A stretch of 64,000 bases of DNA from Escherichia coli (GTDB taxonomy: Bacteria > Pseudomonadota > Gammaproteobacteria > Enterobacterales > Enterobacteriaceae), in the NCBI RefSeq assembly GCF_044324785.1, contig NZ_CP172127.1, one strand, 5' to 3'. How positions within the stretch are numbered: the stretch's first letter is position 1; each line of letters begins with the position of its first letter. Position numbers: made by a program. Positions 3,001 to 6,000 of the stretch are shown here, one piece after another.

Positions 3001-6000
3001 CCTACAAAATTGCGAAAATCCAATAGATTGAGATTCTCTTGTAGGCCTGATAAGCGTGGCGCATCAGGCACTTGTGCCCCGAACGTTGAATGAATTGTGG
3101 TTCTTATGTCCGAAACAAAAAACGAACTTGAAGATCTGCTGGAAAAAGCAGCAACCGAACCGGCGCACCGCCCGGCCTTTTTCCGTACGCTACTGGGATC
3201 CACCGTCTGGGTGCCTGGTACGGCGGCGCAGGGCGAGGCTGTGGTTGAAGATAGCGCACTTGATTTACAGCACTGGGAAAAAGAAGACGGCACCAGTGTC
3301 ATTCCTTTTTTCACCTCGTTAGAAGCACTTCAACAGGTGGTTGAAGACGAACAGGCATTTGTCGTAATGCCCGTTCGCACATTGTTTGAGATGACCCTTG
3401 GCGAAACGCTCTTCCTTAATGCCAAACTGCCAACCGGTAAAGAATTTATGCCGCGTGAAATCAGTTTGCTGATTGGTGAAGAAGGAAATCTGCTGAGCAG
3501 CCAGGAAGTACTGGAAGGCGGTGAATCGCTGATATTATCGGAAGTTGCAGAGCCACCAGCACAAATGATTGATTCACTCACCACCTTATTTAAAACCATT
3601 AAGCCAGTGAAGCGTGCTTTTCTTTGTTCAATTAAAGAGAACGAAGAGGCACAGCCTAATTTACTTATTGGCATTGAAGCCGATGGTGATATCGAAGAAA
3701 TTATTCAGGCGGCGGGAAGTGTAGCGACCGATACATTACCTGGCGATGAACCCATCGATATTTGTCAGGTGAAAAAAGGGGAAAAAGGAATTAGCCACTT
3801 TATTACCGAACATATTGTGCCATTCTATGAACGTCGCTGGGGTGGTTTTTTGCGTGACTTTAAACAGAACCGGATAATCTAAAATATGCCGCCCCAAAGG
3901 GCGGCATTCGGGCTTACCTGCTGTTCTGAAGGTTGTTAACCACCAATAAATTGTTGCCGGAGAGACTCCGGTTATTATTTACCTCGGTTAACAGCGCACC
4001 AGAAACAATAAGTACGATACAAAAGCACCGTATCTTCATTGTGCGGTCCATGCGAAGACCGCATCACGACAGCACCACTGGCGATATTGCCGCGATAGCA
4101 AGCGCTGAGACGCGCTTGCCCTAACGGTCGCGGAACATCCTTTCCTTAAGCCAGCGCCCGCTTGCGAGACGGCGGAAAGGTCCGCAGTGGATAACACACT
4201 AACAGAACAATAATAACTCTCTTTTACTTGACAAAAAGAGAGTTACTGGCGAGTATTGTGTCCGCTGAGACGCGCTTGCATTACTACGGTTATACAATCT
4301 GCTGGAAAGGCCGCGAACCAAACCAGCAACAAATAACCGCCTGATTTTGGCGGTTTTTTGTTGTTTAAAGAAAGTGAAATTACACGTTTAAGTAATATCT
4401 TTTACCAGTTAGTATATTTTAATATTAAGCGGGATTTGTTTATATTTGTCTGAATTCGGACTGATAAGCCAAATGAATTCAAAATCTATCCTTTTTTATC
4501 TACTTGACATCGTTGATGCATAAAGCGAGTATTGAGTAGACGAGATACACTTGCAGTAATACAACCTGCTGGAAAGGCCGCGAATCAGACCAGCAATAAA
4601 AAAACCGCCAAATTCGGCGGTTTTTTATTGCCTGTAAAAAGCTTATTTCAATGGCTCAACCGGTAAATCTGCCCGTGCGCCCCATTCACTCCATGCGCCG
4701 TCGTACAGTTTCACGTTTGGCACATCCAGCGTCGCGAGTGCCAACAAAACCACGGCTGCCGTTACACCAGAACCGCAACTGACGATAATAGGTTTGTCAT
4801 AACTTACGCCGCGACCAAAAAATATCGCATCCAGTTCATCGGTCGTTTTTAGTTCGCCTTCGCGCACCAGTTCCGTCCACGGAACATTCAGTGCTCCGGG
4901 AATATGTCCGCGACGTAAACCTGGGCGAGGTTCATCAACTTCTGCGTTAAAACGTGCAGCCGGGCGGGCATCGATAATTTGCGCCGTATTTTCATGGCTT
5001 GCCAATAACACATCGGTTACTTTCACCACGGCTTCAGGATTAAACGCGGCGTTAAACTCTCCTTCCGGCAGCTCTACTGCGCCTTCTTCTAATAGCAGAT
5101 CATCACGCTGCCAGCCTGCAAGTCCACCACCCAGAATCGACACTTTCTCTACACCAAAGGTGCGCAGCATCCACCATGCTCGTGGGGCTGAGAAAAGATT
5201 ACCTTCGTCATAGACAATCAGGTGCTTATCCTGGTTAACGCCTAATTCACGCATCGCCACGGCGAACGTTTCCGGGCGCGGCAGCATGTGCGGAAGCGGG
5301 GAAGTGTGATCAGAAAGCGCTTCGATATCAAAAAACACTGCGCCGGGAATATGTCCATTCAGATACTCCTGAGCAACGTTACGATCTTCCTGTCCAGGCG
5401 ACGCCATGCGGGCATCGATAATCTGAATTTCCGGGTCATCAATATGTTCGGCGAGCCAGTCGGCTCCTACAAACCATGTCGTGGACATAGGCATCTCCAT
5501 TTTTGCCGGGGTTAGGCTAAATTGTCGGATGTTTAGTGAAAGGCGACAAGCAAAAGAGGCTGATTTGGCTGTCTGAGCCACAATTCTCACTAAAATTCGG
5601 ATTGTATGGGCGTGATACTGAATTACATAACGTAAATTCTCACGCATAATAATTATTCGACGTTGCTAACGGGCCATTGTGGCAGGGATGAAAAATGAAA
5701 AAGTTACGCGTAGCCGCCTGCATGCTAATGCTGGCGCTGGCAGGGTGCGACAACAACGATAACGCGCCAACAGCGGTGAAAAAAGATGCGCCTTCTGAAG
5801 TTACTAAAGCGGCCTCTTCAGAAAACGTGAGTTCAGCAAAACTCTCCGCGCCGGAGCGACAAAAACTGGCCCAACAGAGTGCCGGTAAGGCGCTGACATT
5901 GCTGGATCTCTCTGAAGTTCAACTTGATGGCGCAGCCACGCTGGTGCTGACGTTCTCCATCCCTCTCGACCCGGATCAGGATTTCTCACGCGTTATCCAT

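Follow-up and report, generated by a model that had tools for sequence, protein, structure and literature searches.

A predicted second TimR-family small RNA gene with a distinct seed beside the timP/TimR module of Escherichia coli

The spacer between sseB and sseA of Escherichia coli harbors ryfA, now recognized as the mRNA of a small toxic membrane protein, TimP (PMC7667032). Here we describe this spacer in a 64,000-nt stretch of DNA from an E. coli chromosome (RefSeq assembly GCF_044324785.1, contig NZ_CP172127.1), called the window below, in which the toxin gene is accompanied by two small RNA (sRNA) units: unit 1, predicted to be the cognate antitoxin TimR, and unit 2, a probable TimR paralogue with another specificity. 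The window was also the extent of the source genome that was searched. The spacer is 760 nt long, is 99.6% identical to that of strain N3, and is flanked on the left by the sseB coding sequence (CDS; 3106-3882, + strand) and on the right by the sseA CDS (4643-5488, - strand), both transferred by position from the RefSeq annotation of the N3 locus. In the whole genome of strain N3, which is near-identical to the window, a single locus matches, and its spacer differs at just three positions (window 4194, 4291 and 4585). An earlier note on this DNA had identified the spacer as the ryfA locus, correctly, and had placed in it two sibling sRNA genes with promoters and terminators of their own, which are also borne out below.

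The timP/TimR module and a second TimR-like unit

The ryfA RNA, here a timP mRNA with an alpha-type target site (the types are defined below), takes up 305 nt of the - strand (3881-4185); Rfam RF00126 matches it over its full length at 318.6 bits (gathering score, 80), and this is the sole ryfA that Rfam finds in the window. It contains the timP CDS (3914-4039, -), whose product is a small, toxic protein of the inner membrane, 41 amino acids long, recognized by NCBIfam NF040796 (toxic_TimP) at 84.2 bits (cut-off, 45); homologues of this open reading frame (ORF) carry the timP annotation in RefSeq. A terminator scan places an intrinsic terminator at 3886-3907 (-), a 9-pair stem with seven G-C pairs, located where the Rfam model has its 3' hairpin. 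In the 5' untranslated region (5'UTR), the SL2 hairpin (4098-4119, -) is the predicted TimR-binding site, as judged from its duplex energy, from homology with Salmonella, where SL2 is the mapped TimR-binding site (PMC11228461), and from a 17-nt repeat of the unit 1 seed. This exact direct repeat, CGCTGAGACGCGCTTGC, occurs twice, at 4103-4119 and 4263-4279, and the estimated chance expectation of such a repeat in 851 nt is ~2e-5. Because TimR is encoded on the + strand and timP on the - strand, a direct repeat shared on the + strand makes the two RNAs complementary.

Unit 1 (4262-4359, +) would be an sRNA of ~98 nt with an alpha seed, assigned to TimR by a covariance model of TimR units, by SL2 complementarity and by its K-12 homologue. 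Its promoter (4228-4256, +), recognized from the sequence and an alignment of TimR units, combines a -35 hexamer, TTGACA (4228-4233), a 17-nt spacer and a -10 hexamer, GAGTAT (4251-4256), and a pattern scan finds its terminator, a G+C hairpin followed by a T-run, at 4335-4359. The near-identical K-12 RNA, known as IS129 and ECS011 (Chen 2002; Shinhara 2011), was recovered by deep sequencing and runs at ~95-100 nt on northern blots (PMC3175480). The ECS011 RNA starts at CCGCUGAG (its reads begin CCGCUGAGACGCGCUUGCAUUACUACGG, CCGCUGAGACG), and its 5' end maps 6 nt past the -10 hexamer; the start of unit 1 was accordingly placed at 4262, that is, 77 nt from the ryfA 5' end. The two genes lie on opposite strands and diverge, with overlapping -35 hexamers, and a promoter scan reports a minus-strand promoter-like site, TTGTCA/TATTGT, that overlaps the TTGACA of unit 1. 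The unit 1 seed is complementary to the resident SL2 at 17 of 17 positions in contiguous pairs, and the best duplex between the first 26 nt of unit 1 and the resident timP mRNA (-37.4 kcal/mol) is located at SL2. On these sequence grounds unit 1 is the predicted cognate TimR of the resident timP, and belongs to a family that is already known. One of the differences from N3, T for A at 4291, costs hairpin 1 of unit 1 one pair.

The divergent promoters of timP and TimR have overlapping -35 hexamers, and inverted repeat search shows these hexamers to lie between the arms of a perfect 12-nt palindrome (4214-4245, with arms TAACTCTCTTTT and AAAAGAGAGTTA). Alpha and beta modules share this palindrome; gamma modules and the delta unit lack it. 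It might serve as an operator or simply reflect the symmetry of the promoters.

Unit 2 shares the spacer and the strand of unit 1, lies 276 nt further off, and has neither a partner timP nor a divergent timP promoter; upstream of it, the window retains no remnant of a toxin UTR. The TimR covariance model identifies it as a putative TimR paralogue of ~89 nt (4538-4626, +) with a predicted 5' end at 4538 and a different seed, AGACGAGAUACACUUGCA, which we call delta; 6 of 18 seed positions differ from unit 1. Its presumed promoter (4504-4532, +), located by sequence and by alignment of TimR promoters, has TTGACA at 4504-4509 and GAGTAT at 4527-4532, 17 nt apart. The flanks of this promoter are unrelated to those of unit 1, and use of the promoter is suggested by the fact that only the functional hexamers and their spacing are preserved. 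The terminator, a G+C hairpin and T-run at 4599-4626, was missed by the pattern scan and is supported by an inverted repeat, by folding and by the covariance-model alignment. Unit 2 thus retains the CUGCUGGAAAGGCCGCGAA hairpin domain and a strong terminator, and lacks hairpin 1. The N3 difference at 4585 (T for C) falls in hairpin 2 of unit 2, where the inner stem is otherwise invariant, and turns one of its G-C pairs into G-U.

The sibling relation seen in the earlier note is confirmed in its particulars. In both units TTGACA is followed at 17 nt by GAGTAT within a shared element, GCGAGTATTG; their 3' halves form an 86-nt direct repeat with 78% identity (4289-4374 and 4556-4641) and their 5' halves differ, in line with duplication and divergence of the targeting region; and neither RNA body contains an ATG. 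Small ORFs in the units were rejected as coding: those that overlap the units are all started by TTG and encode 22-44 amino acids. A simple promoter scan calls neither unit promoter, since the -10 hexamer fits just three of six consensus positions. The -35 hexamer, the 17-nt spacing and the -10 hexamer are nevertheless invariant in all ten homologous TimR units aligned, from four genera, E. coli, Citrobacter and Kluyvera among their sources.

To define the family independently of the seeds found here, a covariance model (R1) was trained on nine TimR units with neither alpha nor delta seeds, drawn from other lineages of E. coli and from Escherichia sp., two Citrobacter and Kluyvera. Their consensus structure runs from a 5' seed through hairpin 1 and a conserved hairpin 2 to a terminator, and compensatory changes occur at four of its pairs. 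In the window, R1 matches unit 1 at 4263-4359 (91.6 bits, E 5.5e-18) and unit 2 at 4532-4626 (69.6 bits, E 2.6e-13), and beyond these two no score exceeds 27 bits. Rfam models match neither unit, and ryfA RF00126 fails on both even at E up to 1. The strength of both R1 matches places the two units, at the level of sequence and predicted structure, in the TimR/RyfB family of antitoxin sRNAs, whose members are unannotated in RefSeq and have no model in Rfam.

The likeness to described members is close. TimR (STnc2070) of Salmonella Typhimurium and RyfB1/RyfB2 of Shigella dysenteriae come from the same sseB-sseA locus, measure ~90-100 nt and have no ORF; unit 1 shares with them the divergent orientation to timP and the 5' seed complementary to SL2, and both units share the conserved 3' hairpin and terminator. 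Unit 2 differs from them in having no adjacent timP, no divergent timP promoter, no hairpin 1, and a seed that misfits the resident toxin mRNA: its best duplex with the resident timP reaches -16.7 kcal/mol, in the SL2 region, and is split into helices of at most 5 bp.

The AT-rich segment between the units matches Rfam IS128 (RF00125, 4317-4495, -) at 166.4 bits, with a gathering score of 80, on the strand opposite to the units and overlapping the unit 1 terminator. The study that equated ECS011 with IS129 could not detect the opposite-strand IS128 in K-12 with strand-specific probes (PMC3175480), and in tandem timP/TimR arrays, described below, IS128-like segments are the spacers between modules; IS128 was rejected as an independent gene on both counts. 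The Rfam entry probably describes the wrong strand of this spacer; the existence of IS128 as an RNA is doubtful, and its published signal is that of IS129/ECS011. The window copy lacks a 33-nt 5' block and a remnant of a ryfA-type promoter that are present in K-12.

Specificity types and locus architectures

Comparison of loci yields four seed/SL2 types: alpha (the window timP and unit 1), beta (the K-12 timP), gamma (O157:H7) and delta (unit 2). In a matrix of duplex energies, cognate pairs fall between -32 and -37 kcal/mol and non-cognate pairs between -15 and -26 kcal/mol. The delta variable region (UGUAU in the RNA sense) is outside the four ryfA variable-region types described for Shigella and Escherichia (PMC5333039). 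No other match to the unit 2 seed with up to three mismatches, and no delta-type SL2, occurs in the window. A partner exists elsewhere: in the delta-type timP of strains MSB1_4I and 19AR0646, SL2 reads GCGACGAGATACACTTGCA and matches the unit 2 seed at 17 of 17 positions (-32.1 kcal/mol), and the TimP protein of these strains has the same accession as that of N3. In both strains the delta TimR itself carries an insertion sequence, IS1 at the -35 hexamer in MSB1_4I and IS200 in the terminator in 19AR0646. Unit 2 would thus be a new, unannotated member of the TimR family with an unreported seed type, in a timP/TimR system that is itself known; no described second or orphan TimR of E. coli was found in the literature searched, the coverage of which was limited and is no proof of absence.

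Of 5,426 complete E. coli genomes, 5,425 contain sequence related to the spacer. The matches, 7,553 in total, are all chromosomal, with a median of one place per genome, always at the sseB-sseA locus, and an origin of the units from a plasmid or mobile element was rejected for this reason. The repeats are confined to the locus and arranged as promoter, sRNA and terminator, and the near-identical K-12 homologue of unit 1 is a detected RNA (ECS011/IS129, PMC3175480), which speaks against reading them as nothing but structural repeats of the REP or PAIR type.

Type-specific queries against the same 5,426 genomes gave counts that are exact for the queries and thresholds used. The alpha SL2 is found in 2,982 genomes and the alpha seed in 4,549; for beta the corresponding numbers are 1,975 and 2,146, and for delta 39 and 394; the gamma SL2 is found in 579 genomes. 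TimR therefore exceeds its cognate timP by at least 1,567 genomes for alpha, 171 for beta and 355 for delta, and net orphan copies of TimR number at least ~2,100 across the collection. Among the 394 carriers of the delta unit, 388 have it at an identity of 99% or more.

How these genes are combined was sampled in 60 evenly spaced genomes, each standing for ~90 genomes, with an estimated precision of about ±6 percentage points. The most frequent form is a single unit of alpha timP with alpha TimR (26/60), followed by the K-12 type, in which beta timP is accompanied by a proximal alpha TimR and a distal beta TimR (17/60). The window type, alpha timP with alpha TimR and delta TimR, accounts for four rows, as do gamma singles and beta singles, and the remaining rows are rare forms.

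In K-12 (locus L002, 1700-2313; compare window 4085-4630), the TimR that adjoins the beta-type timP is of the alpha type, non-cognate, and it is this RNA that is expressed as ECS011. The cognate TimR, of the beta type, is the distal one: it follows past the IS128 segment, preceded by a remnant of a second ryfA (approximately its first 20-25 nt) and its promoter. The window presents the opposite arrangement, with a cognate alpha unit next to timP, a predicted orphan as the distal unit, and no second-ryfA remnant upstream of it. In ~29% of complete E. coli genomes, K-12 among them, the TimR that adjoins timP is non-cognate and the cognate one lies further away. C0614, an old microarray-derived sRNA candidate (K-12 2651474-2651560 in U00096.2, corresponding to L002 2119-2205 on the TimR strand), lies directly upstream of the distal beta TimR by coordinate conversion and may be an imprecise trace of the beta TimR transcript.

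Full arrays also exist. Strain MEW (L018, 1300-3150) has three complete tandem modules, alpha, beta and gamma in this order, with each timP adjoining its cognate TimR; strain IR53017 (L019, 1300-2460) has two, beta and alpha, again with each TimR cognate to the adjacent timP. The modules are separated by an IS128-like AT-rich segment and an 87-nt 3' fragment of sseB that is annotated as a pseudogene. The same tandem arrangement is known from ryfA1/ryfB1-ryfA2/ryfB2 of S. dysenteriae (PMC5333039), for which the MEW and IR53017 loci stood in here. Outside E. coli, a scan of genome contigs with a conserved 19-mer returned nine loci, of which three, in unrelated metagenome-assembled genomes, are chance matches; each enterobacterial locus carries one TimR unit, so that the two-unit form was seen in E. 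coli only. In Citrobacter, Kluyvera and Escherichia sp. the seed of this one TimR co-varies with the SL2 of its own locus. Given full arrays on the one hand and a single co-varying module in related genera on the other, the simplest explanation of two-unit loci is that an array collapsed or recombined and an extra antitoxin gene was retained.

Some loci have decayed. In E. coli 06-00048 (L007, 2701-2830) and in the Salmonella arizonae type strain CCUG 6322T (L013, ~6066-6200 of the reverse complement), ryfA and TimR are fused: the sequence between the 16-17-nt direct repeats of target and seed is deleted, and both promoters and SL1 are gone. Judged from these loci, deletion between target and seed repeats appears to be a recurrent decay route in two species. 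The decayed locus of E. coli 06-00048 also contains ISEcB1, and insertion sequences (IS1, IS200 and ISEcB1) occupy the spacers of three loci, at ~1248-2000 in L008, ~1330-1872 in L021 and 2861-4218 in L007.

Origin and possible roles of unit 2

In Salmonella, TimR represses TimP translation and rescues TimP toxicity (PMC7667032), by a mechanism described in the literature (PMC7667032, PMC11228461, PMC13000454). By homology, unit 1 would be transcribed divergently from timP and pair through its first 17-18 nt with the loop and 3' side of SL2; this pairing would block the SL1-SL3 pseudoknot required for ribosome loading and favor a conformation that hides the ribosome-binding site, and no TimP would be made. 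Unit 2, with its promoter, conserved 3' hairpin domain and terminator, is a structurally intact TimR paralogue as far as prediction goes, yet its delta seed would form no continuous helix with the resident alpha-type SL2 while perfectly matching the delta-type timP of a few other strains. It is on account of this misfit at home and perfect fit elsewhere that we regard unit 2 as a probable orphan among antitoxin sRNAs. The collapse of a multi-module array, or recombinational replacement of the proximal module, most likely left it behind; the exact route may have been deletion, unequal crossing-over or allelic replacement of the proximal module. All in all, it is probable that the locus comprises one toxin mRNA, its cognate unit 1, and in unit 2 an orphan delta antitoxin derived from a collapsed or recombined array, which is likely transcribed and of no consequence for the resident toxin. 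Transcription of unit 2 without an effect on resident timP is the most likely state of affairs to be predicted from the features of its promoter and seed.

Several points weigh against this interpretation. Transcription of unit 2 is predicted from sequence, and GAGTAT, its -10 hexamer, fits the consensus poorly; the promoter scan passed the unit over. The duplex energies are simple two-strand estimates that ignore intramolecular structure and protein chaperones. The search for other targets of unit 2 covered 64 kb of the source genome. The near-invariance of the delta unit among its carriers could mean selection for function, or recent common ancestry. Finally, in a study of avian pathogenic E. 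coli (APEC), phenotypes of a ryfA deletion vanished when timR was deleted as well, which hints that an unpaired TimR may act on other targets and that an orphan need not be inert.

An alternative is that unit 2 is a working regulator, either of trans-encoded targets elsewhere or as a pre-installed immunity against an incoming delta timP (anti-addiction). It retains an intact promoter, 3' domain and terminator, hardly any decay of the delta unit is seen across 394 genomes, and there are precedents for the expression of unpaired antitoxins: the non-cognate alpha TimR in K-12, and OrzP of the zor-orz type I toxin-antitoxin system, whose gene persists at orz-only loci after loss of the toxin and is expressed in MG1655 (PMC11264685). 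The OrzP parallel is imperfect, in that OrzP belongs to another toxin/antitoxin family and unit 2 does not stand alone but adjoins an intact module of another specificity. We consider a regulatory role rather doubtful: the window holds no candidate target with three or fewer mismatches to the delta seed, the insertion sequences inside the delta unit of the delta-timP strains examined argue against strong selection, and the high identity may merely reflect recent shared ancestry. With similar reserve we regard the broader conjecture that timP/TimR comprises a set of four or more specificity types, orthogonal to one another and recombining, in which orphan TimRs are kept for a function, be it protection from a timP of another type or action on other targets.

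Conversely, unit 2 might be a silent pseudogene in which promoter-like and terminator-like elements remain but are no longer transcribed. This would agree with the failure of the promoter scan to call it, with the lack of the palindromic divergent-promoter context of unit 1, and with the loss of hairpin 1, which other TimR units have; it is made unlikely by the retention of a consensus -35 hexamer, a 17-nt spacer and a -10 hexamer identical to that of the expressed K-12 unit, although the flanks are unrelated.

Unit 2 might also provide back-up repression of the resident timP, either by pairing imperfectly with SL2 or by way of another site on the mRNA. Its best predicted duplex with the resident ryfA does fall in the SL2 region, and a full-length duplex is predicted at -51 kcal/mol through scattered pairings. 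This total, however, comes mostly from terminator and 3'-domain pairings that would fold intramolecularly, and the SL2 helices of at most 5 bp give less than half of the energy available to unit 1 (-16.7 against -37.4 kcal/mol). Small seed differences suffice for discrimination in S. dysenteriae, where RyfB1 is specific for RyfA1, which it lowered, over RyfA2, which is 95% identical and was not lowered (PMC5333039). A back-up function is on this evidence quite improbable.

There is hardly any room left for the proposal of the earlier note that the units are two sibling ryfA-type sRNAs of unknown target accompanied by a third related hairpin: the locus is that of ryfA and the units are siblings, but Rfam cmscan puts ryfA on the opposite strand (3881-4185) and matches neither unit, both of which fit the TimR model and hence a family of antisense repressors of ryfA (PMC7667032, PMC5333039). 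The element noted near 4100 and again at 4263 does exist, as the exact 17-nt repeat; it represents no third unit, and its copy inside ryfA is the SL2 target site in the timP 5'UTR.

Current research on the timP/TimR (ryfA/ryfB) system is prompted by the unusual way in which translation is controlled and by virulence phenotypes in uropathogenic E. coli, APEC and Shigella, and the interest of the present observations lies mainly in work on ryfA/timPR in E. coli and in annotation. Current studies take the adjacent sRNA as the partner of timP; many E. coli genomes hold two TimR genes of different specificity, and in K-12-type strains the adjacent TimR is the non-cognate one, which affects the design and the reading of timR deletions and complementations. 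The missing RefSeq annotation and Rfam model give the TimR units described here a value for annotation. Four natural seed/target pairs with an unchanged toxin protein also amount to a ready-made orthogonal set of sRNA-mRNA pairs.

Other Rfam matches in the window

Elsewhere in the window, Rfam matches above the gathering score are sroE at 17296-17387 (+, 116.6 bits), sRNA-Xcc1 at 40806-40895 (-, 64.8 bits) and a tRNA at 55035-55108 (-). Sub-threshold matches fall on REP-like palindromic sequence: V_AS5 and CssrA at 1460-1652, near the iscX-pepB spacer, and ES036/CssrF at 3006-3070, in the pepB-sseB spacer.

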